64,000 nt of DNA from Patescibacteria group bacterium (GTDB lineage: Bacteria; Patescibacteriota; Minisyncoccia; Ryanbacterales; GWA2-47-10b): assembly GCA_038065475.1 (NCBI GenBank), contig JBBTQY010000015.1:6608-70607 (forward strand), written 5' to 3'. The notes beneath the pieces were generated by a model. That model saw nothing but the letters and a program-made list of their open reading frames with translations. It had not been told where the DNA came from and searched no databases. A program made the position numbers and the translations under genes. Shown here piece after piece: positions 11,241 to 64,000 of this stretch; the first letter of the stretch is position 1, and every line of letters begins with the position of its first letter.

Positions 11241-11293
11241 CTGAAATAGTTCGTTTACAACCGACAACGCAGCTAACCTTGTAGGAGAATCAA

Positions 11294-24424: not shown

Positions 24425-24438
24425 GGCGGGAGAAACGC

Positions 24439-24556: not shown

Positions 24557-24914
24557 GGTTGTAATGTGGCCACCATCATCTTTACCACCGCCCATCGAAT
24601 ACTCTCCGGGTTGTATCAAACATGGGACATCGAAGTCCGCCAATGGTAGCCACCAACTGCTGTTGTTTTTTAAGAATACGCTAAACATACTCTCGCAAAA
24701 GCCGTAGCCTTGACAATCCTGATGCTTAGTATATTAAAGCCCTCTGCCCAAGCCGTAACCGGAGCAATACAAAAACTTCATTATCTAGATTAGCAAAAAT
24801 TATAAAAACAGAGAATAAATCAGTATAACAAAAACGGTCCCCTGAACCCTTCGGCATGCGCCAAAGAGTCCAAGGGACCGAGAGCCCAAGTGCGCAAGGG
24901 CTCTGTTGCGAGGA

Positions 24915-31365: not shown

Positions 31366-31369
31366 ACTA

Positions 31370-32443
31370 TCAGTATAACCGAGCAAACCACTCGACAATA
31401 AAAAGTTGATACCAAAGAATAAGCATGGCGGGAAGACTAACAAACGTTGATACACTACTAGCAAATATACCGACTGCCCCCGCGACAAACGCGCACGCCA
31501 TCGCAATTGGCATGGTTACAATAATCAAAATATTCGCTGGTATGGAAACGATGGACGGCAACCCAAAATAAAAAACGATAAATGGCAACGTGGCAATTTG
31601 TGCCGATAACGTAGTCGAGAGCGCCTCACGTATACCAAAACGCTTTGGTATAAATAGAAATATTCTATCAAAGCGTGGCACCAAAAATATAATACCAGCA
31701 GTAGCCGCAACAGAGAGCTGAAACCCTATATCACCGAAAAGAATACTCGGCTCCCAAAAAAGCATAGCAACCACCGCATACAAAAGCGCACGCCCCGCCA
31801 TATAGTGATGCCCGGCACGACGCACAACCAATACTAAAACACCCATAAGTGCAGCCCGTACCAGCGAGCTTGCAGCTCCCGTAGCAATAACAAAAAAGGC
31901 AATACCAAGTGCTGGCAGGGCGATGCCACGCGAAAGCGATCCAAGATATTCGGCAATGACCGTCACGTTGTACCCTGAGAGTGCTGTCAGGTGTGATGTG
32001 CCCGTCCTACGAAACGCTTGGCGTAATTCGTATGACATACCTTGGCGATCACCCAGCAAAATACCTTTTGCATATGATGCCTCGGGCTCCCGGAGCGCCG
32101 TATCAAGGCCGCCAGCAAAAAGATTGCGCACATATTCGAGTGGCGGCGCTATATGCCTAAAGAAAGAAAACGTTAATGCTTCCCCATCTGCTCGTACAAT
32201 GCCAAAAAGAAAAAATCCCAACACCAACGCTACAACAAATATTTTGCGCGAGAAAAATGCGCCCGCAATACACACACCAAGACCGATGCTGAGCGCTATA
32301 AAAAAGACGCTCGATATGAACGTCCCGAGATCCAAAGCCATACCTGCGATAAACGCAAACGCACTCCACAGCACGACATCGCGCCTCGCAAGATACTCAC
32401 CGAGAGAAATATTTGTATTATTTGTGAGATCTTTGGAGTACAT
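31370..32443 (-). CDS. comEC: ComEC/Rec2 competence protein, membrane (competence) domain
   Basis: A polytopic membrane protein carrying the ComEC competence-domain segment (...TGTSHLTALSGYNVTVIAEYL...AALMGVLVLVVRRAG...). Confidence 0.6.
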   Translation of the reverse strand: MYSKDLTNNTNISLGEYLARRDVVLWSAFAFIAGMALDLGTFISSVFFIALSIGLGVCIAGAFFSRKIFVVALVLGFFLFGIVRADGEALTFSFFRHIAPPLEYVRNLFAGGLDTALREPEASYAKGILLGDRQGMSYELRQAFRRTGTSHLTALSGYNVTVIAEYLGSLSRGIALPALGIAFFVIATGAASSLVRAALMGVLVLVVRRAGHHYMAGRALLYAVVAMLFWEPSILFGDIGFQLSVAATAGIIFLVPRFDRIFLFIPKRFGIREALSTTLSAQIATLPFIVFYFGLPSIVSIPANILIIVTMPIAMACAFVAGAVGIFASSVSTFVSLPAMLILWYQLFIVEWFARLY

Positions 32444-49935: not shown

Positions 49936-50580
49936 TTAGCGAGCAATAGTTGCCACCGCGTCTTTGGTAAATACCAAATACTTTGGCAAAAGCGCTTCTT
50001 CGACGTTGATGTTGCGCGCCTCCATGATTTCTACATATGGCAAGTTGCGAAACGCACGAATGGTTTCGGGTTGCGACTTTGCCGTCAAGATAAGCGTACG
50101 ACCACCCTTTGCGCCAAATGCAGCAAAGCCAGTAGTCTTACCGAATGATTTGAGGAAAGTTGCCGCCTCTTTGGTTTTTGGTTTTTCGGTTGCAAGAGTG
50201 TCGATGAAAATAATCTCACCATCTTTGAGTTTGCGTGAGAGCGCTGCCGCAAGCGCTTTTCTGCGTGCTTTTTTGTTTATTTTGGTCGTAAAATTTTTGT
50301 CCTTTGATGGACCATGAGTCACACCACCACCAACCCAGAGGGGCGAGCGAGTTGAACCGTGTCGTGCGCGACCGGTACCCTTTTGGCGCCAAGGCTTTTT
50401 ACCACCACCGCGAACATCGCCACGATCTTTGACGTGAGCGATTGCCTTGCGGCGATTTGCCTGAATCTGAACGACAGTTTCTTGTACAAGTGTAGGGCTC
50501 CAGCGAACGGCAAAAAGAGCATCAGAGAGAGTAACTTTGCCTACCGTATCGCCTTTTTGATTGTAGAGTGGAGCTTCCAT
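49936..50580 (-). CDS. rplD: 50S ribosomal protein L4
   Basis: Canonical L4 sequence. Confidence 0.9.
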
Positions 50581-50586
50581 GATAGT

Positions 50587-51129
50587 TTATGCAGAAATTT
50601 CCAAAAGTGTGCCGCGTGCACCGGGTACTGCACCGCGTACGTACAAAAGATTCTTCTCGGCATCGACTTTGGCGACACGCAAACCCTCAACCGTAACGCG
50701 TGTACCACCCATACGGCCACCCATACGAGTACCCTTGAGTACGCGCTGAGGCCATACCGCACCGATCGAGCCTGGCTCACGATGAGCGTGCTTTACACCG
50801 TGGGTCTTGGGTGCACCTTTAAAGCCGTGGCGCTTGACCACACCCTGAAAACCGCGGCCCTTCATGGTGCCTGATACCTTAACCAGATCTCCTTCGGCAA
50901 ACACCGAAACATCGATTTTTGCACCCTTTTCAAATGAATCTTCGGTGCGAAATTCCTTACGGGTCTTGCCGAATGCGACCTGGACTGCCTCATAGCCATC
51001 CTTTTCCTTGCCCTTTACCTGTGAGACCTCGACGGGACCAGCCTGAATGACGGTCACAGGGATTACCGTGCCGTCGTCTTGAAATATTTGGCTCATTTCG
51101 AGCTTTTTGCCGAGGATGAATTTTTTCAT
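50587..51129 (-). CDS. rplC: 50S ribosomal protein L3
   Basis: Canonical L3 sequence. rpsJ is not directly upstream; a 5.4-kb insert separates them. Confidence 0.9.
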   Translation of the reverse strand: MKKFILGKKLEMSQIFQDDGTVIPVTVIQAGPVEVSQVKGKEKDGYEAVQVAFGKTRKEFRTEDSFEKGAKIDVSVFAEGDLVKVSGTMKGRGFQGVVKRHGFKGAPKTHGVKHAHREPGSIGAVWPQRVLKGTRMGGRMGGTRVTVEGLRVAKVDAEKNLLYVRGAVPGARGTLLEISA

Positions 51130-51296
51130 AGACCCCGCTTATTGGAGCTGCTCCCTTTGGGTAATAAAACACCCCGCACGGCGGGGCTAGGCCTTACCGT
51201 TACTATCTGGGGGGAAATCACCCGAGAAACATGACCCCTTTGTAGCACAACGAAAAAGAGCTGTCTAGAGGGAAGATCAAGGCACCAAAAAAAGAA

Positions 51297-51325
51297 TTGA
51301 CAATAAGCATTTACTGGTTTATTAT
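51297..51325 (+). promoter_or_regulatory. Near-consensus sigma70-type promoter for pseudo-receiver module 1
   Basis: TTGACA (51297-51302), a 17-nt spacer, then TATTAT (51320-51325). A GGAAGGAGGG RBS follows, then the ATG at 51346. Confidence 0.45.
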
Positions 51326-51345
51326 AGGCACCGGAAGGAGGGTTG

Positions 51346-51759
51346 ATGACCCAACATGAAAAGAAGGCGGTTCTCATCGTCAATGGAGACCAGGAAAGCC
51401 GGCGCCTTTTGCGCTTCCGTTTGGAGCGAGCTGGCTACCGCGCAGTCATGACAACCAAGGGCAGTATTGCGCTCGACGTGATCATGGATGGCGGTAAGCC
51501 CGACCTCATCGTCACGGAGCTCGTGCTCCCTGGACTTGACGGCTTCGGCCTGATCGAAGGCGTGCGTAGACAACACACGCTCCAAGACCTGCCGATCATC
51601 GTGCTCACCGCACAGACTCTGGGCGGTGTGCGTGAGCGGGCGCTCGCGGCGGGTGCCAACGAGTTCTTCACCATCCCACTCGAGGAGCCTCTGGCTCTCA
51701 CGGCGGCCATTCGGCGACTTCTCGAAGCCGTGCCCGCCCGGCACACCCAGCTCGGATAG
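51346..51759 (+). CDS. Stand-alone receiver-domain protein in which Glu replaces the phospho-acceptor Asp (atypical / pseudo-receiver)
   Basis: A CheY-like fold is indicated by ...AVLIVNGDQESRRLL...DLIVTELVLPGLDG...IIVLTAQ...K at about +50 aa. The canonical LLDxxMPxxDG is replaced by VTELVLPGLDG, and the acidic pair DD is replaced by NGD. The sequence is GC-rich. Confidence 0.55.
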   Translation: MTQHEKKAVLIVNGDQESRRLLRFRLERAGYRAVMTTKGSIALDVIMDGGKPDLIVTELVLPGLDGFGLIEGVRRQHTLQDLPIIVLTAQTLGGVRERALAAGANEFFTIPLEEPLALTAAIRRLLEAVPARHTQLG

Positions 51760-51785
51760 AGCCTCCGAGCAGAGAGGAGGGGGAA

Positions 51786-51983
51786 ATGCCTGGAGAAAGA
51801 GTTCTCGTCATCACAACCAATCTGAGCCCGCTCGAGAGCGTGCTCCAGGGACTGGGCATGATCCGAGAAGCCCGTGAGGAGTTCCTTGGCACGACCATCG
51901 TGGTGTACGGCGCGCTGGACGCGTCGCCACCAACGGAGTTCGTGCCGCTCCACCGTACACTCGAGAAGCTTCCCAACTCGTAA
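51786..51983 (+). CDS. Small hypothetical protein (65 aa), partner of pseudo-receiver 1
   Basis: An AGAGGAGGGGG RBS precedes the ATG. Its N-terminus MPGERVLVITT resembles that of the 52147 ORF (KTGERITVMT). Confidence 0.4.
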   Translation: MPGERVLVITTNLSPLESVLQGLGMIREAREEFLGTTIVVYGALDASPPTEFVPLHRTLEKLPNS

Positions 51984-52003
51984 CAAGCGCCCACGCGCGC
52001 AAC

Positions 52004-52037
52004 CCCGGTCACCAACATCAACGGTGACCGGTTTTTT
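52004..52037 (+). terminator. Rho-independent terminator
   Basis: ccggtcacc-aacatcaac-ggtgaccgg followed by TTTTTTTAT. Confidence 0.55.
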
Positions 52038-52039
52038 TA

Positions 52040-52068
52040 TTGACATTTTATAAGAAATAGTATATAAA
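52040..52068 (+). promoter_or_regulatory. Near-consensus sigma70-type promoter for module 2
   Basis: TTGACA (52040-52045), a 17-nt spacer, then TATAAA (52063-52068). It lies immediately after the module-1 terminator. Confidence 0.45.
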
Positions 52069-52146
52069 AAGCCTAGATTTCTTCCCTATCCCCTGCGGCT
52101 GCGGCCCAGGGCTTCCCCTTTACCAAAAGGGCTATCGGAGGACACG

Positions 52147-52524
52147 ATGCGAGTAACCTTGAAAACGGGCGAGAGAATCACGGTCATGACACCGGACGAC
52201 GACACAGAAGCCGGTCGTCTGGCCTACAATCTTCTCTTTACCCTGCTCGCCCTTCTCGCGTCAGAGACGCCGCGAGACATCAAGCTGAAGTTCCAATTCA
52301 CTGGCAAGAACTCAGCTACGATCGCTCTGTTCATCGACGACAAGCTGCGCGAGAATATTCCGTGCATCAACTTCAACCTGGGGCGCTCGGTGGGTCGCGC
52401 ACGCGCCGTCGACCTGATACGCTTCCGTCTCGGTGGGCTCGTCTGCGCGCTGACCGGCGGCAAGTTCGCACTACTCGACGACATCAACGCGGGCTCGACG
52501 ATCCACCTTGCCCGCCTTCTCTGA
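52147..52524 (+). CDS. Hypothetical protein (125 aa) whose N-terminal motif is related to the 65-aa ORF
   Basis: A GGAGGA RBS lies 4 nt upstream. It begins MRVTLKTGERITVMTPDDD..., and no family was recognised. Confidence 0.4.
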   Translation: MRVTLKTGERITVMTPDDDTEAGRLAYNLLFTLLALLASETPRDIKLKFQFTGKNSATIALFIDDKLRENIPCINFNLGRSVGRARAVDLIRFRLGGLVCALTGGKFALLDDINAGSTIHLARLL

Positions 52525-52538
52525 CGAGAGGAAATAAC

Positions 52539-52910
52539 ATGCCAAACAGCAAAACCGTACTACTCGCAGATACACGAAGCTACCGGATGGAATGGGAAGC
52601 GCTCATCGGATATCAGGTCGGGACACACTCAATTCGTTTCCATGAAGCTTGGAGTGTATTGAGCGCGGTCGCGGCCACACAGCGTGAGTGTCCAAACCTC
52701 ATCATCACCGAGCTGCTCGGTGCCGAGCATGGATGCTGGATGATCCGTGAACTGCGCCGCATCGCGCCCGACTCCCGCATCATCGTGGTGTCGGCGAACA
52801 ATACAGACAGGATCGCCGACGCAATCCATGCGGGAGCAGTCGAATACTTCACCAAGCCCCTCGACTACGACAGGTTCATCGGCACCGTGCGGCGATACCT
52901 CGAGCTCTAG
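52539..52910 (+). CDS. Second stand-alone atypical receiver-domain protein (Glu at the phospho-acceptor position)
   Basis: It contains KTVLLADTRSY...NLIITELLGAEHGCW...RIIVVSANN...K, with the same TEL substitution as the 51346 protein. A GAGAGGA RBS is present; the start was chosen at MPNSK. Confidence 0.5.
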   Translation: MPNSKTVLLADTRSYRMEWEALIGYQVGTHSIRFHEAWSVLSAVAATQRECPNLIITELLGAEHGCWMIRELRRIAPDSRIIVVSANNTDRIADAIHAGAVEYFTKPLDYDRFIGTVRRYLEL

Positions 52911-52934
52911 GCGCACACACGCCACCAACGCCAC

Positions 52935-52978
52935 GAGGCGCTTCTGGAAGCATTCCGGAAGCGCCTCTTTTCTTTTTT
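52935..52978 (+). terminator. Rho-independent terminator after module 2
   Basis: A 10-bp stem gaggcgcttc...gaagcgcctc followed by TTTTCTTTTTT. Confidence 0.55.
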
Positions 52979-53024
52979 GTACGGCTTGACCGCTAGGATA
53001 AAATGGTTTACTCTCTGGGCTAAA

Positions 53025-53099
53025 GCTGGCGGAGCGAACGCGCCGAAGTTGGGGAACTCTCCCACCCTGATAACGGACGCCCTTGTTCGCTCCGCCAGC
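53025..53099. ncRNA. Candidate structured RNA or cis-element: a 15-bp perfect inverted repeat enclosing a 45-nt loop that has internal hairpins
   Basis: gctggcggagcgaac (53025-39) and gttcgctccgccagc (53085-99). The loop contains the gggaactctccc hairpin. It lies in intergenic sequence between the module-2 terminator and a convergent gene terminator (53151-53176). Confidence 0.2.
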
Positions 53100-53193
53100 C
53101 CATCGAAGCACTTTCGACCATCCCCTGCAGCCAGAGACGGCATCACAAAAAAACCACACCATCCACGGTGTGGTTTCGTCATTTTATACAGAG

Positions 53194-53523
53194 TTAAGCG
53201 CGCGAAACTTTAATATATCGGTAAATCGAGCGCACGATACTAATAAGACCCGCGCCCAGAAGAATAGGAAGAGCAACGAGTCCCGCGGAGCATCGCCAAT
53301 CTTCTCCCTGTACACCAAAGCAAGCAGCGAAAGTTATAAAAAAGATAAATGCTGCGGGAATGCCAGCGATAAGAGCTACCTCCACAATGTGCAAAAGCAA
53401 AGAAAAAATATTCACTATTTTACGGCGAGGCAAAAAGAATATGAGTACTAACACAAGTAAAAACGCGCAGAGTATTACTATCTCTGGATAAAAGAAAAAT
53501 AATTCTGCGATATCTCGTAACAT
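53194..53523 (-). CDS. Hypothetical small membrane protein
   Basis: A 109-aa ORF with 3 hydrophobic helices. A terminator hairpin aaaccacacc...ggtgtggttt lies downstream on the minus strand. Confidence 0.4.
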   Translation of the reverse strand: MLRDIAELFFFYPEIVILCAFLLVLVLIFFLPRRKIVNIFSLLLHIVEVALIAGIPAAFIFFITFAACFGVQGEDWRCSAGLVALPILLGAGLISIVRSIYRYIKVSRA

Positions 53524-53540
53524 ATTTTTATATTAATCTC

Positions 53541-53993
53541 TTAAAAAACTTTTTTGCCGTGCGCGTTCCAGTACATCCAGAGATGTACTGCGGCAACGAT
53601 GTACAAGATAGCGGTCACCGTAAAGACAAACCCGCCCCATGCGATGCGCATTCCAATATTGTTGCCGATGATTGGTACAAGACCAAGGTTAATACCCGAC
53701 ACCACGCTGACAAAAAACATAACAGTATCACGCATATCTTTTTTACCAAACACTTTCTGCCCGCCTGTATACCAGCGCCAGCCGAGATATGCTGATGCCG
53801 CGCCCGAGACGAGCCACGAGAGTGTGAGGATGGTGCCTACCAGTCCATAAAAAACTGAAGAGCCAAGCAGCCAATAGAGTGGCGGCGTGCCGCCTAACAG
53901 TAATGCAAATGCGGCGATAACTAACCGCGCCTCTGACCAGAGAAAAGAATACTTTTCCAAATTCTCCGGCTTTGTAAATTCTTGTGTGGTCAT
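53541..53993 (-). CDS. Hypothetical membrane protein. It is the intact copy of the gene whose 5' end is repeated twice nearby.
   Basis: A 150-aa ORF with 4 transmembrane helices. Its N-terminus MTTQEFTKPENLEKYSFLWSEAR recurs in truncated form at 55024-55101 and 55838-55900. Confidence 0.5.
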   Translation of the reverse strand: MTTQEFTKPENLEKYSFLWSEARLVIAAFALLLGGTPPLYWLLGSSVFYGLVGTILTLSWLVSGAASAYLGWRWYTGGQKVFGKKDMRDTVMFFVSVVSGINLGLVPIIGNNIGMRIAWGGFVFTVTAILYIVAAVHLWMYWNAHGKKVF

Positions 53994-54112
53994 ATATGCA
54001 TGAGATTACTGATATCGTCTTTAGTATATCACCTTAAGTTACCAACAAGCATCAACCTCTATGCACAGAACAATACTAGCGCCTAAGAACCAAAACTCCT
54101 TATAATAAACTT

Positions 54113-54421
54113 ATGACTTACTGGCAAAGATTAGCGCGTAGTACTTCTGCCTTTGGTTTACTCTGGTTATTTGTGTTTCTATCAGATGTGCTAGGACAAG
54201 TAAAAAGCTTTGTGCCTCAAAAAGCTTATGTCCCGCAAGAAGCTCTTCTGAAAAACATACAAGAAACTTGGTTTGCCGGTTTAGTAGGTACCTTTCTCAC
54301 AATAATACTGTTCTCACTTTTTATTCGCTCAGAAAAAATCTATACCGCGCAATCTACAGGATCAATAATTGGTTTCCTTTTTGCGACTGTACTTGTAATA
54401 AGCTGGAAACTATTTTCCTAA
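54113..54421 (+). CDS. Hypothetical membrane protein
   Basis: A 102-aa ORF with 3 transmembrane helices. A terminator follows (aaaaccgcccaagggcggtttttgg, 54437-54462). Confidence 0.35.
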   Translation: MTYWQRLARSTSAFGLLWLFVFLSDVLGQVKSFVPQKAYVPQEALLKNIQETWFAGLVGTFLTIILFSLFIRSEKIYTAQSTGSIIGFLFATVLVISWKLFS

Positions 54422-54515
54422 GAGTATTTTCGATCAACCAAAAACCGCCCAAGGGCGGTTTTTGGTTGGACAGGATCCTTTGACTACATCTTTACTTCGA
54501 CATCAACACCGCAAA

Positions 54516-54755
54516 TTATTTTAATTGAACAACCTTGGCCTTGGAACCAAGAAAATGTTCCAGTTTACCCTTACCTTCGCGAAAAGTATCAAAGCTGAAA
54601 CCGTGAATATCGATACGTACCGGATTGCCCTTTTTATCAACATCAATAACCACGTTGCCCCTGATATCAGAATCAACGCTTTTGCCTTTACCTACGGCAA
54701 GGGAAAGTACCTCGCTGCCGCGGTCGTATGAAATTTTTCTTTGTTGTTTGCTCAT
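54516..54755 (-). CDS. DUF2283-family protein (putative antitoxin-like partner)
   Basis: A 79-aa ORF with KISYDRGSEVLSLAVGKGKSV...GNVVIDVDKKGNPVRIDIHGFS, which matches the DUF2283 pattern (ISYD.E.D.LYI.....GN.VGIEIL.AS). Confidence 0.55.
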   Translation of the reverse strand: MSKQQRKISYDRGSEVLSLAVGKGKSVDSDIRGNVVIDVDKKGNPVRIDIHGFSFDTFREGKGKLEHFLGSKAKVVQLK

Positions 54756-55000
54756 AAATATTTCTTGATTTTAGATGTTTCTATAACTGTAATAACACGC
54801 AGTGTATCTTTTACTTTTTCACCAATAACTATCAACAGTCTCGGTATATGCCGCTTTTTATACAGCTTTTTAAACATCAATCTACCTCTTGCATCATATA
54901 ATATTTTTGTTGGATTTACCAATGCTTCCTCAATGAGTGCTACGGAAATAGATCTCTCCTGCATCCGTAATTTTGCGTGAGGAGATAAAGTATATTTCAT
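54752..55000 (-). CDS. DUF4258-family protein (putative toxin-like partner)
   Basis: An 82-aa ORF with MKYTLSPHAKLRMQERSISVALIEEAL.NP.KI..D.....F...........VIGEKV.DTLRVITV, which matches DUF4258. It overlaps the DUF2283 gene by 4 nt. Confidence 0.55.
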   Translation of the reverse strand: MKYTLSPHAKLRMQERSISVALIEEALVNPTKILYDARGRLMFKKLYKKRHIPRLLIVIGEKVKDTLRVITVIETSKIKKYL

Positions 55001-55023
55001 GGATACATACTATCACAGACATA

Positions 55024-55101
55024 TTACACCCACCGCGCCTCTGACCAGAGAAAAGAATACTTTTCCAAATTCTCCAGCTTCATAAATTCATTTGTGGTCA
55101 T
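55024..55101 (-). pseudogene. Truncated duplicate (copy B) of the 5' end of gene 53541..53993
   Basis: It reads atgaccacaaatgaatttatgaagctggagaatttggaaaagtattcttttctctggtcagaggcgcggtgggtgtaa (MTTNEFMKLENLEKYSFLWSEARWV*). About 70 nt are near-identical to 53924-53993. It abuts the start of the DUF4258 gene. Confidence 0.5.
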
Positions 55102-55106
55102 AGGAT

Positions 55107-55499
55107 TTAAGAACTAAAATATTTAATAATTAAGGAAAAACCGACAAAGACTAAAACAAAAAAAATAAATATGATGTACCGAGGGAGCTCCCCTTTCTCT
55201 TGAGGACGCTTTGCCCCAACTAAATCTTTGGCCGTACCAATAGCAATTCCAGCGGGCATGCTCCCCAAACCATATGACTGTGTATCTTTACCAGTCAAAC
55301 CGGTAAGTTTTCGATATCGATACCATTTTGCATATCCAACTAATAACGTTCCTATAAAGAATGTTGGCCATAGCATTATCCAGAGATTTTCATTCATATC
55401 GGGAAATGCCGCTGTCAAAAAACCCATCGCAACAAAAGTTACAACAAATGCAAGAAGGTAGTAAGTGTAAAGCGTGAATGGTTTCCTGGGGGACTCCAT
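55107..55499 (-). CDS. Hypothetical membrane protein
   Basis: A 130-aa ORF with 4 transmembrane helices. The start was chosen at MESPRKPF; the longest ORF extends into GC-rich upstream sequence that is probably non-coding. Confidence 0.35.
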   Translation of the reverse strand: MESPRKPFTLYTYYLLAFVVTFVAMGFLTAAFPDMNENLWIMLWPTFFIGTLLVGYAKWYRYRKLTGLTGKDTQSYGLGSMPAGIAIGTAKDLVGAKRPQEKGELPRYIIFIFFVLVFVGFSLIIKYFSS

Positions 55500-55548
55500 A
55501 TTTTCAGTATACCATCCGAAATAAAAAACCGCCCGAGGGGGCGGGGTG

Positions 55549-55803
55549 TCACTTGATCGTGTAGTAGGGCACGCCCCTGACCACGTGTCTCTCAGCAGTA
55601 TGTCCGCCGATACCCAGAAGCAACCCGATGAGGGTCTCGCCATCAGCAGGTATGAGCCTGCCCGAAAAGTTGATTGACATGACCTTCTCAGGATCGGTCC
55701 GCGCTGAGGGCGGAGGACCACTACTACTGCCGGCCCTGACCCGATAGATCTTGAATGTGCGCGGGGGCTCAAACGAAATTACATCGCCACTATTCAACCT
55801 CAC
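55549..55803 (-). CDS. Small GC-rich hypothetical protein (GTG start)
   Basis: An AGGAGG RBS lies 6 nt upstream of the GTG at 55803. The GC content is atypical for the AT-rich neighbourhood. No family was recognised. Confidence 0.3.
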   Translation of the reverse strand: MRLNSGDVISFEPPRTFKIYRVRAGSSSGPPPSARTDPEKVMSINFSGRLIPADGETLIGLLLGIGGHTAERHVVRGVPYYTIK

Positions 55804-55837
55804 AAGCCACCTCCTTTCTGGCACAGGCTAGCACAAA

Positions 55838-55900
55838 CTAAAAACCTCCGCCAAGCGGAGGTTCCAAATTCTCCGGCTTTGTAAATTCTTGTGTGGTCAT
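55838..55900 (-). pseudogene. Truncated duplicate (copy C) of the 5' end of gene 53541..53993
   Basis: It reads atgaccacacaagaatttacaaagccggagaatttggaa (identical to 53955-53993), then cctccgcttggcggaggtttttag, which forms a hairpin. Confidence 0.5.
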
Positions 55901-55929
55901 AGATAAAAATTATTTTTAGCTAATAAAAA

Positions 55930-56502
55930 TTAATTTTCATAGCCTAGCGTGCGATCGTTAGCGACAAGATGATATTTGCTTCCGCCAACATCTACTAAAA
56001 GCTCTATATCGTAAGGTCCTACGGGATGAGTAACTTTTTTATATTCAAGTTTAACAATGACATCCTCGCCTTCTTTAACTAGCAATGGAACATCTTCGAG
56101 AACAATATAAAGTTTTTTTCGGAAACTAGCCCAATCAAATACTTGAACACCAAGAACAGACTTACCGAAGTCTTCGAGCTCAGATTTTAAAGCGTCGAGG
56201 GAATATTTATAAAAAGCTTTTTTGATTTCTTGAGATAATATCTCACTCCAAATATTATTATCTATGTATTTACTAGCTTTTGCGAGCACATAAATCTCGT
56301 TTAGTATTTTCTCTGCATCTTTTGTAAGAAATGCATGGCATATCCAATTTCTATAAAATCTTATTACCTTAAAATTCGATTGTCGACCTGGAACCAATTC
56401 CAAATACTTACAAATTCCCACTAAAACATAAATTATGTCTTGTTCTGAATATGATGTTTGGGTAAAAATATTTTTAGTCTTATCTAAAATTACTGATTTC
56501 AT
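55930..56502 (-). CDS. Hypothetical protein (190 aa, AT-rich), no recognisable family
   Basis: A long ORF with a terminator downstream (aaagccccgcagggcggggctttt, 56519-56542). It sits directly upstream of rpsJ. Confidence 0.45.
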   Translation of the reverse strand: MKSVILDKTKNIFTQTSYSEQDIIYVLVGICKYLELVPGRQSNFKVIRFYRNWICHAFLTKDAEKILNEIYVLAKASKYIDNNIWSEILSQEIKKAFYKYSLDALKSELEDFGKSVLGVQVFDWASFRKKLYIVLEDVPLLVKEGEDVIVKLEYKKVTHPVGPYDIELLVDVGGSKYHLVANDRTLGYEN

Positions 56503-56552
56503 AAAGCTCTCTAGAAAACAAAAGCCCCGCAGGGCGGGGCTTTTGGTCTCGT

Positions 56553-56885
56553 TTACATCTTTACCTCTACATCAACACCGGCAGGAAGGTTGAGGTTGGT
56601 GAGCGCATCGATGATCTTGGGCGTTGGGTCCTTGATATCGACAATGCGCTTGTGCACGCGCATCTCAAACTGTTCGCGAGCGTTTTTGTGCACGAATGTC
56701 GAGCGGTTTACTGTGTACTTACGGATTTCCGTAGGCAGCGGCACCGGCCCTACAATCTCGCCTCCGTACCTGCGCGCGGTCTCTACAATCTGCTTTACCG
56801 ACGCGTCGATGACCTTGTTGTCATACGCGCGGATGCGAATGCGGAGCTTGGTCGCGGTTGGAGTTTTGTCTGCTGCTCGTGCCAT
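56553..56885 (-). CDS. rpsJ: 30S ribosomal protein S10
   Basis: ...[40 protein letters not shown]... is the canonical S10 sequence. Confidence 0.9.
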
Positions 56886-56909
56886 GTGATGTGTTAGTAA
56901 GGGTTAGAA

Positions 56910-58106
56910 TTATTTGCTGATTTTAGTTACAACACCAGCACCTACCGTCTTACCACCCTCGCGGATAGCAAAGCGCTGTTTTTCTTCGAGTGCTACGGCC
57001 TGTACGAGTTTTACTTGGAACTTCATCGTATCACCTGGCATAACCATCTCGGTGCCCTGTGGAAGGGTTACCTCGCCTGTTACGTCAGTGGTGCGGATGT
57101 AAAACTGTGGCTTGTAGCCAGCGAAAAATGGCGTGTGGCGTCCACCTTCATCTTTGGTGAGGATATATACCTCAGCTTCAAACTCGGTGTGAGGGGTGAC
57201 TGATCCTGGCTTTGCCAAAACCTGACCGCGCTCAACATCTTCTTTTTTGAGACCACGAAGCAAGAGACCAGCGTTGTCACCTGCCTGACCCTCGTCAAGA
57301 GATTTATTGAACATTTCGATACCGGTCACCACAGTCTTTTGTGTGTCGCGGATACCAATGATTTCAATTTCCTCGCCTACTTTTACCTGACCGCGCTCGA
57401 TCTTACCGGTAACCACGGTGCCACGTCCTTCAATCGAGAAGACGTCTTCTACTGGCATCAAGAATGGCTTTTGGAGATCGCGAACTGGCTCAGGGATATA
57501 GGTATCGAGCTGATGGGTAAGCTCAAGCACTGCCTTGACCGCTGGGTCTTCGGCTGACTTGCCTTCCAATGCCTTGAGAGCTGAGCCGCGGATGATTGGG
57601 GTCTTGTCACCTGGGTATTCGTACTTGGTGAGAAGGTCACGAATTTCCTGCTCGACAAGGTCGATAAGCTCTGGATCGTCTACTGCATCGCACTTGTTGA
57701 GAAATACGATGATTGAGGGTACACCTACCTGCTTTGCAAGCAAGATGTGCTCGCGCGTCTGAGGCATAGGGCCATCAGTTGCGGCTACCACGAGCACTGC
57801 GCCATCCATCTGGGCGGCACCCGTGATCATGTTTTTGATATAGTCGGCGTGTCCCGGCGCATCGATGTGCGCATAGTGGCGAACTGCCGACTCATATTCT
57901 GAGTGGTGGAGTGCAATAGTAATACCACGCGCCCGCTCCTCGGGTGCGTTGTCAATCTGGCTCACATCCTCAACACGCACCTTGTTTCCGGCGAGTGCCA
58001 AGCTATGGAGAATTGCCGCCGTCAAAGTAGTCTTACCGTGGTCGACGTGACCAATGGTGCCTACGTTGAGGTGCGGTTTTGAACGGTCAAATTTTTCCGC
58101 TGCCAT
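56910..58106 (-). CDS. tuf: Elongation factor Tu
   Basis: A 398-aa ORF with [18 protein letters not shown] and NKCD motifs. Confidence 0.95.
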
Positions 58107-58175
58107 AGTGAAAAAGCGATTAAAACTAGTAATTATTAGATAACGCCAATGATAGTGAAAATACCCTCCCCTGTC

Positions 58176-58275
58176 AATCCCGTTACATTTTTACTAGGCA
58201 TGATTTATAGAAAGTGCCTGTTTAATATCTAATAATCCCAATGCCACAAAAGAAAACCCAAAAAAATGTAACGGG
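58176..58275. repeat. 14-bp perfect inverted repeat pair flanking about 72 nt, upstream of tuf
   Basis: cccgttacattttt (58176-58189) and aaaaatgtaacggg (58262-58275). Confidence 0.3.
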
Positions 58276-58464
58276 ATCAAATCAGGGCTTTGGGACTTCC
58301 CTCACAATGGAAGGTCGTCGGCCGTCGCATCAGTGCGCTCGAGGTCTTCGGTAGCCAGTTCTTCGGCAAAAGAGAAGTCACCGTCTACCTCGCGCTCATC
58401 AAAACCTTGGGGCTCGTGTGCCATATACAAAGCATAGCTTAGAAAAAATCAATATAAAAGAAGA

Positions 58465-58490
58465 ACAGCGGAGCCCGTGGGGGCTCCGCT
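58465..58490 (-). terminator. Rho-independent terminator of the GC-rich secreted-protein gene
   Basis: cagcggagccc-gtgg-gggctccgctg, followed on the minus strand by a U-rich tract (the plus strand reads aaaaaatcaatataaaagaagaa upstream). Confidence 0.5.
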
Positions 58491-58555
58491 GTGGTGCGGG
58501 GTGTTCGCGGGGGTGCGAACGAGAGAACGGGGGAACGGGGGAACGAGAAGCTTCG

Positions 58556-59164
58556 TCAGCTGGTCGTGCGCGCCTGCGGGTCGTTCGAGCTGTGGCCCGG
58601 AACCCTGGCGAGTGCGCCGATGTCGTGCGGGCTGCCGCGCGAGCCGTCGTCGATGCCGGCGAAGGTGATGCTGCCGACGAGGATGCCGGCCGCGGTGGTG
58701 CTGATGGCGCCGCTGGCACCCGTGTCGTCGTAGAACGCCGTGCAGATCATCGTCTCGCAGACGCCGAGGCCAGCCTGGGCCATGGTCGTCGCGGTGGTGA
58801 GGTCGGCCTTCTTGCCGCCCTGCATGAACTGGTACACGCCGGACTCGGTCTTGGTCAGCTCGATGGCCGCGCCGGTCTGGTTGGTGTCGATCGTGCCGCT
58901 GCTCTGGGTCACGGTGGGCTCGGTCCAGTCGAAGGCGATCAGATCGCCTGCCATGAGCTCCACGCGCGGGACGAGCGCGATGTCGCGCTGGATGTTGTCG
59001 TCCGGGCCGGTGTCGATCATGCGGCCGATGTACGTCGAACCGGTGTTCGTCTGCTCCGTGCCCACGCCGAGCGGGACGAGCAGGCCGAGGGCCACGATCA
59101 TCGCCACAGCGATGGTCCACGGAGCGTAGGTGCCGATGCGGAACCGCTTGATGCTCTGGGTCAT
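58556..59164 (-). CDS. GC-rich hypothetical secreted or membrane-anchored protein, Thr/Gly-rich
   Basis: A GGAGGA RBS lies 6 nt upstream of the ATG at 59164. An N-terminal signal/anchor is present (MTQSIKRFRIGTYAPWTIAVAMIVALGLLVPLGVG). The overlapping long ORFs in other frames are compositional artefacts. Confidence 0.45.
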   Translation of the reverse strand: MTQSIKRFRIGTYAPWTIAVAMIVALGLLVPLGVGTEQTNTGSTYIGRMIDTGPDDNIQRDIALVPRVELMAGDLIAFDWTEPTVTQSSGTIDTNQTGAAIELTKTESGVYQFMQGGKKADLTTATTMAQAGLGVCETMICTAFYDDTGASGAISTTAAGILVGSITFAGIDDGSRGSPHDIGALARVPGHSSNDPQARTTS

Positions 59165-59330
59165 CTTCTTTCCTCCGTCGTTGTCGAGGAGCTCCCCTGG
59201 TAAGGGGGCTCGGTGGTGGTACTTCCCCCTCACTATACCCAAGCTCGATATTTTCGTCAATATTCCTGTGCAAAAATCAAAAAGCGCCCCTCCGCATACG
59301 CTCCGGACGCTTTTTGGTCAAAATACGTTT

Positions 59331-61442
59331 TTATTTCCTGCCTGCTACGATCTCGGCGGCAACGTTTTTTGGTACTTCTTCGTATGAAGAGAACTCCATA
59401 GTGTATGATCCGCGTCCTTCAGTGCGCGATCTAAGGTTGGTCACATAGCCAAACATCTCTGAGAGCGGTACCTTCGCGTCGATAACCTTGAGATTGAGAC
59501 GGTCTTCCATGCGCTCAATGCGTCCACGCTTACTGTTGATGTCACCGGTCACCTCACCCATGAAGTCTGCGGGCACAATAACCTCCACTTTCATGATTGG
59601 CTCGAGCAATACCGGATCGGCACGCTTGGCAGCTTCCTGGAAGCCCATGGAACCTGCGATCTTAAATGCAGCTTCGTTTGAGTCTACATCATGGTATGAG
59701 CCGTCATAGAGAGTTGCCTTGACGTCAACGATGGGGAAGCCCGCAACCACACCCCTGTCGAGTGATTCACGAATACCTTTTTGTACCGCGGGGATAAATT
59801 CTTGAGGAATCGCGCCGCCCTTGATCTCGTTGATAAATTCAAAGCCTTTACCTGTCTCGTTTGGTTCAACACGCAAGCGCACGTGGCCGTACTGACCGCG
59901 ACCGCCTGACTGTTTGATGTATTTGCCTTCTGCCTCGGCTTTTTTGCGGATAGTTTCTTTGTAAGCTACCTGCGGCTTGCCTACATTTGCCTCGACATTA
60001 AACTCACGCTTCATGCGATCGACAAGAATTTCGAGGTGCAACTCACCCATACCTGAGATAATCGTCTCACCAGTCTCGCCGTTGCTACTGATACGAAATG
60101 TCGGATCTTCTTCAGAAAGACGCTTGAGCGCAAAACCCATACGCTCTTGGTCTGCCTTGGTTTTTGGCTCAATTTTGAGATCTACAACAGGCTCAGGGAA
60201 TATAATTTTTTCTAAAATCACCGGATGCTCAGGATCGGTCAGCGTATCACCAGTAGTAGTTGACTTGAGACCTACAATGGCACCGATCTCACCTGCGTGC
60301 ATTTCTTTTACTTCTTCGCGATGGTTTGCGTGCATACGCAAGATACGGCCTACACGTTCTTTTTGATCTTTAGTTGCATTGTAGATGTACGAACCCGCCT
60401 CGACAACGCCCGAATACACCCGGAAATAAGTAAGCTGACCTACAAAAGGATCAGTCTGCAATTTGAACGCAAGCGCGGAAAATGGAGCCTCATCAGATGT
60501 CTCGCGGATGATATCGGCGTCAGTATTTGGATCTTTACCTGTGACTGGCGGCCTGTCCAAAGGACTTGGCAAGTAGTCTACGACACCATCAAGCATCAAC
60601 TGCACGCCTTTATTTTTGAGTGCTGACCCGCAAAATACCGGCACAATCTTGTATCCGATAGTGGCAGCGCGCAAAGCTTTTTGTAATTTATCAAAAGAAA
60701 TTTCTTTGCCTTCCAAATATTGTTCCGTGAGTGCATCATCAGTCTCGACAATCTTTTCGAGCAAAATATGGCGAAACTTATCTGCTTCAGCTTTGAAATC
60801 TGCAGGGATTTCTTCTATCACAATCTTCTCGCCATGATCACCATGAAAACGAAAGGCCTTCATGCGCAAAAGATCAATCACACCTGCAAAATCTGATTCG
60901 AGACCAATTGGGAGCTGCACCGCAACTGCGTTTGGAGTTAAACGTTCAATGATCGAGTTAAAACTGCGCTCAAATGATGCGCCCGTGCGATCAAGCTTGT
61001 TGATGAAACACATGCGCGGCACTTTGTACTTGTCTGCCTGACGCCATACCGTTTCTGACTGAGGCTCTACGCCTGCCACACCGTCAAATACCACCACGCC
61101 ACCGTCGAGCACGCGAAGTGAGCGCTCTACCTCTACGGTGAAGTCTACGTGGCCAGGGGTATCGATGATGTTGATGCGATATTCGTGATCTTTATTTTTA
61201 TGTGCGTCAGGAAGGTACGTCGGGCGCCAAAAACAAGTGGTAGCAGCTGACGTGATCGTGATACCACGCTCACGCTCTTGTTCCATCCAGTCCATAACTG
61301 CTTCACCTTCGTGTACCTCGCCGATTTTGTGCGATACACCGGTGTAAAACAAAACACGCTCGGAGACCGTGGTCTTGCCAGCATCGATATGAGCAATAAT
61401 GCCAATATCACGGATACGCTCGAGAGGATAGTCGCGTGCCAT
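59331..61442 (-). CDS. fusA: Elongation factor G
   Basis: A 703-aa ORF with [17 protein letters not shown] and the canonical domains IV and V. Confidence 0.95.
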
Positions 61443-61944: not shown

Positions 61945-62364
61945 TTATGCCTTTGCCTTCGGGCGCTTTGAGCCGTACTTTGAGCGAGCCTGACGGCGAG
62001 TCTCAACACCTGACGCATCGAGTACACCACGAACAATGTGGTAGCGAACACCTGGCAAGTCCTTTACGCGACCACCGCGGATCATGACCACTGAGTGCTC
62101 TTGCAAGTTGTGACCGATACCTGGGATGTACGCGGTTACTTCGGTACCGTTTGAAAGACGTACACGCGCAACTTTACGGATAGCAGAGTTAGGCTTTTTA
62201 GGAGTCTGGGTGGTGACCTTCACACATACGCCACGCTTGAATGGCGAGCTGTGCCATACGCGCTTGTTGTGGATGGTATTAAAACTAAACCGCAAAGCAG
62301 GCGCCTTTGCCTTTTTGGGCACGCGCTTCCTGCCGTGACGAATCAATTGCTGAATAGTTGGCAT
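61945..62364 (-). CDS. rpsL: 30S ribosomal protein S12
   Basis: [14 protein letters not shown]... The start was chosen at MPTIQQ (62364). Confidence 0.9.
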
Positions 62365-62398
62365 ATAAAAATGTACCCTCGAGAATAACAAAAAGATG

Positions 62399-62428
62399 AT
62401 GCGGTGTCAAGAAAAATGCCCCCTCCCG
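62399..62428 (-). promoter_or_regulatory. Candidate sigma70-type promoter of the rpsL-rpsG-fusA operon
   Basis: On the minus strand: TTGACA (62428-62423), an 18-nt spacer, then TATTCT (62404-62399). The -35 element overlaps the U-tract of the upstream gene's terminator. Confidence 0.4.
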
Positions 62429-62460
62429 ACGGTTCGGGTAGGGGGCATGGCCTCATGGCT
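62427..62460 (-). terminator. Terminator hairpin of the Cys-rich secreted-protein gene
   Basis: atgccccctcccg ... cgggtagggggcat, followed on the minus strand by TTTTTCTTG. Confidence 0.45.
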
Positions 62461-62485
62461 TCGTCTCGCAGAGATCAGGGCTTGG

Positions 62486-63178
62486 TCAGCCGCAGGCGCA
62501 GGGTACGCCCGAGGTGCTGGGTTTGCACGAGAGCCCGGTGGTGCAGTCGCCACCGCACTGGTTGGTACCGGGGATGAGCCCGCACGGTTGCGAGATCTGC
62601 GGCACACAGCGGCAGATGTCCGCGGCATCGGGCCGACAGACGTCGGTCGTGTCGGGGCAGGTACCACCGCACTGGTGAGGCGCGGTCGGTCCGCAGTCGG
62701 GATTCGGCGGCGTGGTCGTCTTGTAGGCCGGCACGAGAAGTTCACGCGTGGTCGCCTTGCGGTCGATCTGCGCGATTCCCCGTACGAACTGGTCCGAAAC
62801 GCCCTGCGCGAAGTTCGCCTGCGACGGACACCGCATCTTGTAGACGAAGTAGTCCGACTTGAGGTCGACACCCACGGGTGCCTGCCGCGGCACCTTGTCG
62901 ACGGGGATGCAGAGCTTGATGGGTCGCGGCGCCTTGAGCGGCAGCAGCCTGCAGCCGTCCTCGACCGCGAACGGCGGGACCTGGAAGGGGCGCAAGACGA
63001 GCGGGTCGAAGGCGTGCCCCGAGACCTGCAGCTCACCCTTCTTGAAGCCGATCTTGTAGCACTTGAGGTGGTCGAAGAGCGGCCCCGCCTGCGCGAACGC
63101 GCTGGCGGGCAGGATCATGGCCAGGACGGCCATCGTGACGGCCAGCGCCATCGTGGTCAACATTCGCTTCGTTGTCAT
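62486..63178 (-). CDS. GC-rich, Cys-rich secreted hypothetical protein (paralog 1)
   Basis: An AAAGAGGA RBS is present. The signal peptide is MTTKRMLTTMALAVTMAVLAMILPASAFA. Its C-terminus holds more than 14 Cys within Gly/Pro/Thr-rich repeats. It shares the motifs L.CY...GE...C.L...CIP.D with the 63389..63862 protein. Confidence 0.5.
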   Translation of the reverse strand: MTTKRMLTTMALAVTMAVLAMILPASAFAQAGPLFDHLKCYKIGFKKGELQVSGHAFDPLVLRPFQVPPFAVEDGCRLLPLKAPRPIKLCIPVDKVPRQAPVGVDLKSDYFVYKMRCPSQANFAQGVSDQFVRGIAQIDRKATTRELLVPAYKTTTPPNPDCGPTAPHQCGGTCPDTTDVCRPDAADICRCVPQISQPCGLIPGTNQCGGDCTTGLSCKPSTSGVPCACG

Positions 63179-63339
63179 GTATCCTCTTTCTCTCTGTGCC
63201 GTGTTTTTGAAGCACGGCGGGTTCGAAGTTCCGCACCAAACAAAAAAAGGCCTTTCTGCGAGACGAATTTGGAAGGTGCGATACAGCCGCCAATACTACA
63301 GTATTATTAAAAAATGTCAATACAACAACATAAAAAGAA

Positions 63340-63368
63340 CCCCCTCCCAGACGACCCGGGAGGGGGTA
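63340..63368 (-). terminator. Terminator hairpin of paralog 2
   Basis: ccccctccc-(9 nt)-gggaggggg, followed on the minus strand by TTCTTTTTA. Confidence 0.45.
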
Positions 63369-63388
63369 TGCGCGTGAGCGCGTGCGCC

Positions 63389-63862
63389 TTACGGCGAGAA
63401 GATGGTGGCGGGGACCACCACCATGGTGGGCCCGGGCTTGCCGTTGGCCGTTACAAGACCATCACCGAGACGCGAGTCGAGCGCCTCGGTGAAGTCGAGA
63501 CCAGTCTTGCCGCACGCGACCAGGTAAAGCAGGTATGCTGGTGCGTCGAGCGGAGTGCCGTAGGGGCCTTCGTCGGCGGACTGGATGTCGGCCGGGATGC
63601 AGACCATGAAGGGTTTGTGCCTCTTCAGATCGCACTCCTCGTACCCCATTCCGAACCCGGCGGGCTGGACGTAGATCTTGGGTCCCGCGTCGGTCGTGAA
63701 CGTCTCGCCTCTGGTCTTCGCCCGGTAACAGGCCAGACCATCGAAGATGGGGGAATCGGCGTGGGCGAAGGACGCCGCCAGATTGAGAATGCAGACGAGC
63801 GCCGCGATGGCCAGAAAAAGGAGCAGCACGAACCGGAAAGCCACCCAGATTCTTCGGAGCAT
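63389..63862 (-). CDS. GC-rich secreted hypothetical protein (paralog 2)
   Basis: An N-terminal hydrophobic signal is present (VAFRFVLLLFLAIAALVCILNLAASFAHA). LACYRAKTRGE...EECDLKRHKPFMVCIPAD is homologous to paralog 1 (LKCYKIGFKKGE...EDGCRLLPLKAPRPIKLCIPVD). Confidence 0.45.
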   Translation of the reverse strand: MLRRIWVAFRFVLLLFLAIAALVCILNLAASFAHADSPIFDGLACYRAKTRGETFTTDAGPKIYVQPAGFGMGYEECDLKRHKPFMVCIPADIQSADEGPYGTPLDAPAYLLYLVACGKTGLDFTEALDSRLGDGLVTANGKPGPTMVVVPATIFSP

Positions 63863-64000
63863 AACTCGAACCTGCCTTTCTATAGGCTGTGGCTATGCTT
63901 TCGCATAGCGAGTTTGAGGGACTAAACTTTGCACTATTATATCAATAAAATACGTATTTGTCAATAACACCCGAGCATAGCAAAAAAGCGAAAAAACACT

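Follow-up and report, generated by a model that had tools for sequence, protein, structure and literature searches.

The window analysed here is a stretch of 64,000 nt from a 304-kb contig of a Patescibacteria group bacterium, which was assembled at 11x coverage from a Hainich groundwater metagenome (0.1 µm filter fraction). In this window the ribosomal protein genes rpsJ (S10) and rplC (L3) are separated by a gap of 5,423 nt (51130-56552). This gap is probably a long-lived recombination hotspot, in which blocks of accessory genes have been stacked by homologous recombination in the tuf-rpsJ region and illegitimate recombination at the far end, and not the product of one insertion. The probability of this reading is roughly 0.6. 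It is suggested by three truncated gene ends (scars) that close the blocks, by unstacked alleles of the same locus in relatives, and by genes of the gap that are resident at this position in the clade.

The ribosomal genes around the gap are all located on the minus strand, in the order fusA (59331-61442), tuf (56910-58106) and rpsJ, and continue past the gap with rplC, rplD, rplW and rplB. The limits of the gap are given by the list of open reading frames (ORFs) and by the Pfam labels Ribosomal_S10 and Ribosomal_L3. The guanine-plus-cytosine (GC) content of its segments varies from 33% to 65%, as compared with 49% for the whole window. The features from rpsJ to rplC are as follows.

56553-56885, minus strand: rpsJ (S10), an ORF matching PF00338; together with tuf it makes up the left flank, which is conserved and is proposed to be the anchor of homology.
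56519-56545, minus strand: H_A, a terminator-like hairpin directly after rpsJ, found by the hairpin scan; homology to the related locus L087 stops just beyond it, at 56507.
55930-56502, minus strand: p190, the gene of block B for a 190-aa protein of an uncharacterised family (GC 33%), in the slot of AbiU in L087.
55862-55900, minus strand: scar 1, M150 nt 1-39 (39/39 to the resident copy), fused to a hairpin.
55841-55865, minus strand: H_C, a terminator-like hairpin from the hairpin scan, which opens block C.
55549-55824, minus strand: GC91, a GC-rich small ORF (84 aa from a GTG codon behind GGAGG, at 55549-55803), the DNA of which is about 97% identical to contig L110.
55529-55544, minus strand: terminator-like hairpin after GC91, from the hairpin scan.
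55107-55499, minus strand: TM131, the gene of block C for a 130-aa membrane protein with three hydrophobic segments; homologues lie between rpsJ and rplC in the locus L104 also.
55032-55101, minus strand: scar 2, nt 1-70 of an allele of M150 with the signature MTTNEFMK (65/70 to the resident copy).
54752-55000, minus strand: DUF4258 toxin-like gene (RelE/ParE superfamily; PF14076, E 6.9e-9), 83% identical in amino acids to that of the locus L089.
54516-54755, minus strand: DUF2283 gene, a putative antitoxin gene (PF10049, E 2.6e-7), 89% identical in amino acids to that of L089 and overlapping the DUF4258 gene by 4 nt.
54485-54511, minus strand: scar 3, the 27 nt that close an allele of rpsJ, encoding GVDVEVKM and the stop codon (25/27 to the rpsJ gene of the window, 27/27 to that of L087).
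54435-54468, no strand assigned: H_B', a perfect 16-bp bidirectional terminator-like hairpin; over 77 nt, scar 3 and H_B' together share 88% identity with the rpsJ end and hairpin of L089.
54113-54421, plus strand: TM102, an ORF for a 102-aa membrane protein with hydrophobic segments.
53541-53993, minus strand: M150, the resident gene for a 150-aa membrane protein with four hydrophobic segments, at the same position in four lineages.
53194-53523, minus strand: TM109, a lineage-specific ORF for a 109-aa membrane protein, followed by a terminator-like hairpin (53150-53177).
52147-52967, plus strand: module 2 (GC 57-60%), with p125 (52147-52524), RR2 (52539-52910) and a terminator (52935-52967); TTGACA-17-TATAAA is located at 52039-52067.
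51297-52035, plus strand: module 1 (GC 62%), with a promoter-like site (51297-51325, 11/12 matches), RR1 (51343-51759), p65 (51786-51983) and a hairpin with a T-run (about 52003-52035).
51130-51267, minus strand: promoter-like site of rplC (TAGACA-17-TACAAA, 51239-51267) and leader with a terminator-like hairpin (51171-51187), near-invariant in three lineages.
50587-51129, minus strand: rplC (L3), identified as an ORF with a Pfam match, the first gene of the conserved right flank.

An earlier note on the window, made from its letters alone, had placed rpsJ and rplC 5.4 kb apart and had listed genes, repeats and hairpins of the gap, every one of which is present. Its two promoter-gene-gene-terminator modules are RR1/p65 and p125/RR2, which have promoter-like sites; receiver domains (PF00072) are recognised in RR1 (E 3.8e-16) and RR2 (E 1.7e-9), which are paired with p65 (65 aa) and p125 (125 aa). 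Its three to four genes for small membrane proteins are four in number, TM109, M150, TM102 and TM131, the products of which (109, 150, 102 and 130 aa) have three to four hydrophobic segments each. Its DUF4258/DUF2283 pair is identified by the Pfam matches, its GC-rich small ORF and 190-aa ORF are GC91 and p190, and its three copies of one gene's 5' end are those of M150. Two features are absent from that note: the rpsJ 3' remnant (54485-54511) with its own hairpin, and a hairpin proximal to rplC (51167-51188) that resembles the rpsJ terminator at 19 of 22 positions.

The region between rpsJ and M150 is composed of blocks, each of which ends in a scar. Read from rpsJ on the minus strand, block B consists of H_A, p190 and scar 1, and block C consists of H_C, GC91, a hairpin, TM131 and scar 2. 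Block D consists of the DUF4258 and DUF2283 genes, scar 3 and H_B', and is followed by TM102 on the opposite strand and by intact M150. The 5' end of M150 is thus present three times, as the full gene from 53993, as the 70-nt copy and as the 39-nt exact copy, and matches so long cannot be attributed to chance in 6.5 kb. In every block the scar is found on the side away from rpsJ, and all scars share one strand, which is the geometry expected from an anchor on the left. The junction points differ, however, from one another: they fall at M150 nt 39, at M150 nt 70 and 27 nt before the end of rpsJ, and a remnant of about 48 nt is found in L104.

Unstacked alleles of the same locus are found in relatives, with the gene orders GC91-TM131-intact M150 (L110), rpsJ-toxin-antitoxin (TA) pair-M150 (L089) and rpsJ-AbiU-M150 (L087). 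The contig L110 (886 nt) comes from a different sample and carries GC91 (96% amino acid identity), a hairpin, a TM131 homologue (72% amino acid identity) and an M150 gene that is intact for 51 codons, up to the end of the contig. The MTTNEFMK signature of scar 2 is otherwise found only in L110, where M150 runs on intact, and the 802-nt alignment between the window and L110 stops exactly where scar 2 ends. L110 is, from this alignment, the predicted parental allele of block C. Block C is itself a mosaic as compared with L110, since GC91 is 96-100% identical and TM131 62-86%. The TA block of the window is 81% identical to that of L089. No parental allele of the p190 block is found among the related loci.

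A second lineage with an rpsJ remnant is represented by L104-L109 (rpsJ 83%, rplC 72%). In these loci rpsJ is followed by a DUF4258/DUF2283-like pair, a remnant of about 48 nt of rpsJ (encoding LVGFNLPAGVDIEVKM and the stop codon) with a terminator, a GC-rich 209-aa ORF, a 90-aa ORF, a TM131 homologue and rplC. When 95 loci were scanned for C-terminal remnants of rpsJ, they were found only in the window and L104 lineages, always downstream of rpsJ and on the same strand; none is located upstream or antisense.

Not all of the gap is variable. M150 belongs to a family that is well conserved in Patescibacteria (222 matches, many at 50-60% identity), and its position in the relatives is as follows, with identities to the window.

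L087, L088, L098 and L100 (rplC 97%, M150 93%): rpsJ, the same H_A, AbiU, M150, two opposite-strand receiver genes, rplC.
L089 and L099 (rplC 94%, M150 84%): rpsJ, hairpin H_B, DUF4258, DUF2283, H_B, a 103-aa ORF, M150, one receiver gene, rplC.
L090-L093 (rplC 78%, M150 71%): DUF2283, DUF4258, DUF2283, a 241-aa ORF, a 112-aa ORF, M150, rplC.
L094 (M150 58%): an M150 homologue outside the ribosomal cluster.

The DNA alignment between the window and L087 is confined to three places. The first is tuf-rpsJ (93%, up to 56507; 90% for the tuf-rpsJ alignment with L089). The second is the M150 coding sequence (89%), which is bounded exactly by the start and stop codons. The third begins at 51342, one base ahead of the RR1 start codon, and runs on across rplC-rplD (85%). 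M150 and the rplC-proximal intergenic region are considered resident, because only these, with the flanks, align to L087; no alignment to relatives at the DNA level is obtained in the variable parts. Between the rpsJ terminator and the M150 start codon the lineages differ, this stretch being filled by AbiU (PADLOC E 2e-69; Pfam AIPR E 7e-48), by the DUF4258/DUF2283 pair or, in the window, by the three stacked blocks. As judged from these comparisons, the gap is partly ancestral in the clade, in that M150, a slot for divergent receiver genes and the rplC promoter and leader are common to three close lineages. A conserved ancestral arrangement in close relatives, against which the earlier note proposed to check its insertion, is therefore found for these three elements, while all else differs.

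The receiver genes of the slot (51343-52910 in the window, 2704-3496 in L088 and 10539-10913 in L089) are only 20-39% identical to one another, whereas the adjoining rplC genes are 94-97% identical, and the DNA homology ends at the receiver start codon. Their GC content is 0.57-0.63, as compared with 0.49-0.50 for the loci.

The blocks are proposed to have been stacked as follows. A block would arrive on DNA of a related allele of the same locus, probably by natural transformation. Homologous exchange in the highly conserved tuf-rpsJ region, combined with an illegitimate join at the far end, would then amount to homology-facilitated illegitimate recombination. Older occupants would be kept and shifted away from rpsJ, and each event would leave one scar. 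The first event would have brought the TA block, with the 27-nt rpsJ 3' remnant as its scar. The second would have brought the GC91-TM131 block, with the 70-nt M150 5' piece, and the third and last the p190 block, with the 39-nt M150 5' piece. The tuf-rpsJ DNA is more conserved between lineages (90-93%) than that of rplC-rplD (85%). No Pfam family of integrases or transposases is recorded within 10 kb on either side or among 20 larger ORFs elsewhere in the window. The distal scars, the irregular junctions and the lack of a recombinase on record fit recombination that is homologous at tuf-rpsJ and illegitimate at the other end. ComEC domains are located about 20 kb away (30514-32443), with a Competence match (PF03772, E 6.9e-40) and a metallo-beta-lactamase domain on an overlapping ORF.

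Several observations weigh against this mechanism. The ComEC domains are the one feature that points to natural transformation. Microhomology at the joins is at most tentative, with possible GGAA/AA and GCGGT overlaps. The rpsJ remnant starts 2-4 nt after the DUF2283 stop codon in both of the lineages that carry a remnant, and in L089 and L104 alike the repeats on either side of the TA pair are spaced by 555 nt, although the lengths of the components differ. The recurrent position of the remnant and the 555-nt spacing hint that the mechanism is more specific, or that the event was single and ancient; the spacing is possibly coincidental. An intragenomic duplication or an event of the Campbell type would also explain why scar 1 is identical to resident M150. 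The terminators and promoters of the gap are predicted from pattern matches, and the number of hairpins is not above expectation (13 found in the scanned region, 9.6 expected from shuffled sequence), yet the hairpins are located exactly at gene ends.

Campbell-type additive integration is the first alternative to be weighed. Circularised fragments of alleles would be integrated by a single RecA-dependent crossover in the M150 5' end, or in the rpsJ 3' end and its hairpin. The same final structure is expected from this process, namely direct repeats of the shared segment around each block, and the blocks are indeed bracketed by M150 5' copies 3, 2 and 1 and by the rpsJ 3' end and its remnant. 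Moreover, scar 1 matches the resident copy exactly, and a 28-nt hairpin repeat, with 100% identity between its copies, lies on both sides of the TA pair of L089. However, the homology for the crossover would be only 27-70 nt. The repeats are cut at different points and are interleaved (rpsJ 3' end, M150 5' end, M150 5' end, rpsJ 3' end, M150 5' end), so that several differently permuted circles would be needed, and a circular form has never been observed. We consider this alternative rather unlikely, but still a serious competitor of the main reading.

Site-specific integration of cassettes, integron-like or att-type, by a recombinase encoded elsewhere is less probable still. The GC-rich hairpins or the rpsJ 3' end would serve as the sites. 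A hairpin closes every cassette, a duplicated 3' end of the target (scar 3, 27 nt here and about 48 nt in L104) is typical of att-type integration, and the DUF4258/DUF2283 pair recurs with an rpsJ remnant in the second lineage. Nevertheless, the integrase and transposase families are missing from the ORFs surveyed as described above, the junctions fall at three unrelated sequences and positions, and the lengths of the remnants vary with no fixed crossover core. The cassettes are located on both strands, and the hairpins, perfectly palindromic and flanked by runs of A and T, have the look of intrinsic terminators. H_A is without the AAC/GTT ends expected of an attC core. When the hairpins were compared by eye, and not with an attC model, with the core RYYYAAC...GTTRRRY, H_B' alone comes near to it (GTCCAAC...GTTGATC, one mismatch).

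It is highly improbable that the gap is an assembly chimera, in which different alleles of coexisting strains were concatenated at repeats. Alternative alleles do occur in nature, the repeats are 39-70 nt long and the coverage of the contig is low, and misassembly at the repeats had been raised as an alternative in the earlier note. Each of five gap proteins that were looked up is found, however, in 3-7 contigs from separate assemblies, mostly with the same neighbours, and an unchanged order of the genes is reported for 3-5 contigs. In addition, three Logan unitigs (k=31) of the run ERR3858120 are 100% identical to the window at 56981-55872, 53965-55061 and 52552-47091. Their ends fall inside repeats, as expected, and the second bridges the scar 2/DUF4258, DUF2283/rpsJ remnant and TM102/M150 junctions. 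The rpsJ remnant shares no exact run of more than 12 nt with rpsJ, and the join of scar 1 to its hairpin has only about 4 nt in common with any allele. The scar 1 join and scar 3 could not be created by a de Bruijn graph of k>=21, because these shared exact runs are too short. Misassembly of the gap is therefore unlikely.

The view of the earlier note, that one recent 5.4-kb accessory island was inserted between adjacent rpsJ and rplC, is scarcely credible as a single event. Accessory genes do split the pair, the composition is heterogeneous and atypical, and in 80 other Patescibacteria genomes no homologue of a gap gene turns up near rpsJ. However, relatives have M150, the receiver slot and the leader of rplC at the same position, and the internal scars record several events; the gap is made up, as a mosaic, of resident genes and three or more cassette blocks stacked on one another.

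Adjacency of rpsJ and rplC is near-universal in model bacteria. The earlier note called the two genes adjacent almost universally, and this premise fails within the phylum. The 80 Patescibacteria genomes were fetched through their rpsJ genes, and both genes could be placed in 73 of them. In these 73 loci the distance between the two genes is 211 nt in the median, with quartiles at 87 and 480 nt and a range of about 1-3,538 nt; it exceeds 300 nt in 24 loci and 700 nt in 15. Of 79 loci, 32 have a stringent terminator-like hairpin in the 120 nt that follow rpsJ, as compared with none of 69 after rplC. In much of Patescibacteria, tuf-rpsJ and rplC onwards look like separate units. The contents of the other gaps are unrelated to one another and to the window. 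As labelled by eye, without a hidden Markov model (HMM) search, they include a DUF4258/DUF2283-like pair (L066), a HicAB-like pair and a pilin-like gene (L045) and a PemK-like gene (L069). The routine break of the S10 operon at rpsJ-rplC in Patescibacteria matters for operon-based annotation, for phylogenomic markers and for binning checks based on synteny.

In the window, terminator-like hairpins follow rpsJ, scar 1, GC91, TM109 and RR2, one is located just upstream of rplC, and a bidirectional one lies between DUF2283 and TM102. The promoter-like site is strong before RR1 and near-consensus before p125. Because a hairpin after tuf-rpsJ is common in the phylum and rplC has a promoter-like site of its own, DNA between the two units need not disturb the expression of ribosomal proteins. 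The earlier note regarded the pieces of the gap as insulated; the hairpins that flank the pieces and the promoter-like site and leader of rplC agree with this, and the insulation of transcription itself is a prediction from them.

The approximately 140 nt before rplC are near-invariant in three lineages, with a conservation above that of coding DNA. This leader is composed of the TAGACA-17-TACAAA site and two hairpins, the second of which is terminator-like and lies about 40 nt ahead of the start codon. It corresponds to 51130-51267 in the window, 11402-11540 in L087, 11001-11138 in L089, 3061-3172 in L090 and 3299-3415 in L104. Its elements are recognisable in L090 and L104 with a few compensatory changes; the support from covariation is weak. 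The fold alone is indistinguishable from that of shuffled sequence (z -0.47), and an Rfam search of 50400-59500 gives no match with E < 0.1. It is plausible that the rplC leader is an attenuator-type ribosomal protein leader. The S10 operon of E. coli has a leader attenuator controlled by L4. The two are alike in that a conserved leader with a terminator-like hairpin immediately precedes the first gene of a unit, but here the leader precedes rplC, not rpsJ, and rpsJ goes with tuf.

The spacer between the convergent terminators (52975-53150) contains a perfect 15-nt inverted repeat (53025-53039 and 53085-53099) and its predicted fold is much more stable than that of shuffled sequence (-73.8 kcal/mol, z -3.35). 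It has no Rfam match and no second copy in any sequence fetched. A publicly called 177-aa gene at 52629-53162 on the minus strand is probably spurious, as it overlaps the Pfam-supported RR2 on the opposite strand.

The matches of the DUF4258 and DUF2283 proteins to Pfam are both above the gathering scores. With their adjacent, overlapping genes, the two form a putative TA-like pair. DUF4258 is included among the BECR-fold toxin families of type II TA modules (RelE/ParE superfamily), with its activity listed as unknown (PMC11980606). The HMM and structure searches proposed in the earlier note for the 190-aa ORF place p190 in a family. A word-indexed search returned p190 alone, whereas an exhaustive HMMER search returned about 80 representatives (50% clustering) of similar length, with the conserved motif FYRNWxCH. 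The AlphaFold2 model built from the HMMER alignment has a mean confidence score (pLDDT) of 92 and consists of eight helices and a four-stranded C-terminal sheet. Matches to p190 are absent from Pfam, PADLOC and PHROG, and no significant fold match is found in PDB or BFVD. The location of p190 in the AbiU slot is at most suggestive of a defence role. PADLOC gives no match for the variable-slot genes of the window; its sole match is a weak one of the RR1 receiver domain to PD-T4-6 (E 6.2e-5). A phage origin was considered and rejected, as the p190 profile, GC91, p125 and M150 are without IMG/VR relatives and no PHROG matches are found.

The general kinds of system to which the gap belongs, core-flanked hotspots and arrays formed by sequential displacement, are already known, and the rpsJ-rplC case is a new variant of them; no description of a cassette hotspot at rpsJ-rplC was found in a literature search. 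For the orphan immunity-gene arrays of the V. cholerae type VI secretion system (T6SS), sequential displacement by homology-facilitated illegitimate recombination was proposed (PMC5361080, which also cites orphan arrays of Rhs and contact-dependent inhibition (CDI) systems). This type of recombination is described for naturally transformable bacteria (PMC3240628). The gap resembles the T6SS arrays in its conserved upstream anchor, in the placement of new modules beside the anchor with older occupants shifted distally and kept, in the truncated remnants that mark the events, and in that no dedicated recombinase is involved and competence is presumed. It differs from them in that the anchor is the tuf-rpsJ ribosomal cluster and not a secretion-system gene, and in that the cargo consists of a TA pair, small membrane proteins and uncharacterised ORFs and not of effector-immunity pairs. 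The host here belongs to the uncultivated Patescibacteria, and the mechanism is a proposed one.

Defence hotspots flanked by core genes have been described for P. aeruginosa (core defense hotspots, PMC10250203) and for E. coli (PMC10121019). As far as these are compared in outline, the gap is similar to them in that the site between core genes is fixed and its content varies among close relatives, with the recognised defence gene AbiU in one lineage. It differs in that it lies inside the S10 ribosomal protein cluster and is very small, with cassettes of 0.5-2 kb. The gap is also similar to an integron, because short cassettes are stacked at a fixed site, the newest probably being the nearest, and each is closed by a hairpin. 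In contrast to an integron, no IntI is found, the hairpins are terminator-like and not attC, the junctions are irregular, and the cassettes are on both strands, several with promoter-like sites of their own.

The scars and the surviving parental alleles provide unusually legible evidence of how accessory genes are gained and stacked in the tiny, integrase-poor genomes of uncultivated symbionts, and this evidence speaks for ultra-conserved ribosomal genes as the sites of homologous anchoring. Three candidates are nominated for further study: the family of p190, the receiver genes next to rplC, which turn over fast, and the leader conserved before rplC. A bolder reading, which we regard as doubtful, is that the site immediately downstream of the rpsJ terminator is, in one clade of Patescibacteria, an integrase-free platform for cassette capture, that p190 is a new defence or toxin gene and that the rplC leader is a new attenuator. 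In this platform tuf-rpsJ would act as a universal homology arm, because its DNA is near-invariant between species. Transformed DNA would drop defence, TA and membrane cassettes beside one of the strongest transcription units, the newest nearest, and the platform would be a functional analogue of the integron.

Other variable sites are suggested within and beside the ribosomal cluster. A cassette of 774 nt with 65-68% GC between fusA and tuf (58490-59263) is a second break in the cluster and is missing from L087 and L089. On its minus strand, a promoter-like site and a terminator accompany an ORF, probably 58556-59164, for a signal-anchored protein rich in T, G and S; the ORF has no family match and is supported by the promoter-like and terminator-like elements and by a hydrophobic segment. 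A publicly called 261-aa gene on the plus strand (58418-59203) overlaps this opposite-strand ORF and is probably spurious. Just upstream of rpsL, 62396-63925 contains two GC-rich ORFs without Pfam matches, and the relatives differ at this position (214 aa in L087, 229 aa in L089), so that it looks like another variable site at the flank of the ribosomal cluster. Kinship among these GC-rich islands was rejected, since a tblastx comparison of 58400-59320 with 62350-63950 gives only weak, probably compositional matches.

Elsewhere in the window, a diversity-generating retroelement (DGR) is located at 23020-25565. It contains a reverse transcriptase gene (23020-24027, minus strand; RVT_1, E 6.5e-27) and 117-nt template (24442-24558) and variable (24950-25066) repeats, the variable copy being at the 3' end of a GC-rich ORF (24915-25565, minus strand). 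All mismatches between the repeats coincide with a plus-strand T in the first copy, which corresponds to an A on the reverse transcriptase strand. A link between the DGR and the divergent receiver genes was considered, and no connection is seen, because the DGR is 27 kb away and has its own pair of template and variable repeats. An ORF at 4453-7812 encodes a class I aminoacyl-tRNA synthetase of 1,119 aa with a His_Phos_1 domain (residues 492-644, E 1.7e-30) inside the synthetase core. The sole tRNA-like gene in the window is that of tmRNA (10886-11241), with the tag peptide ANLFNRQPAMAFA.

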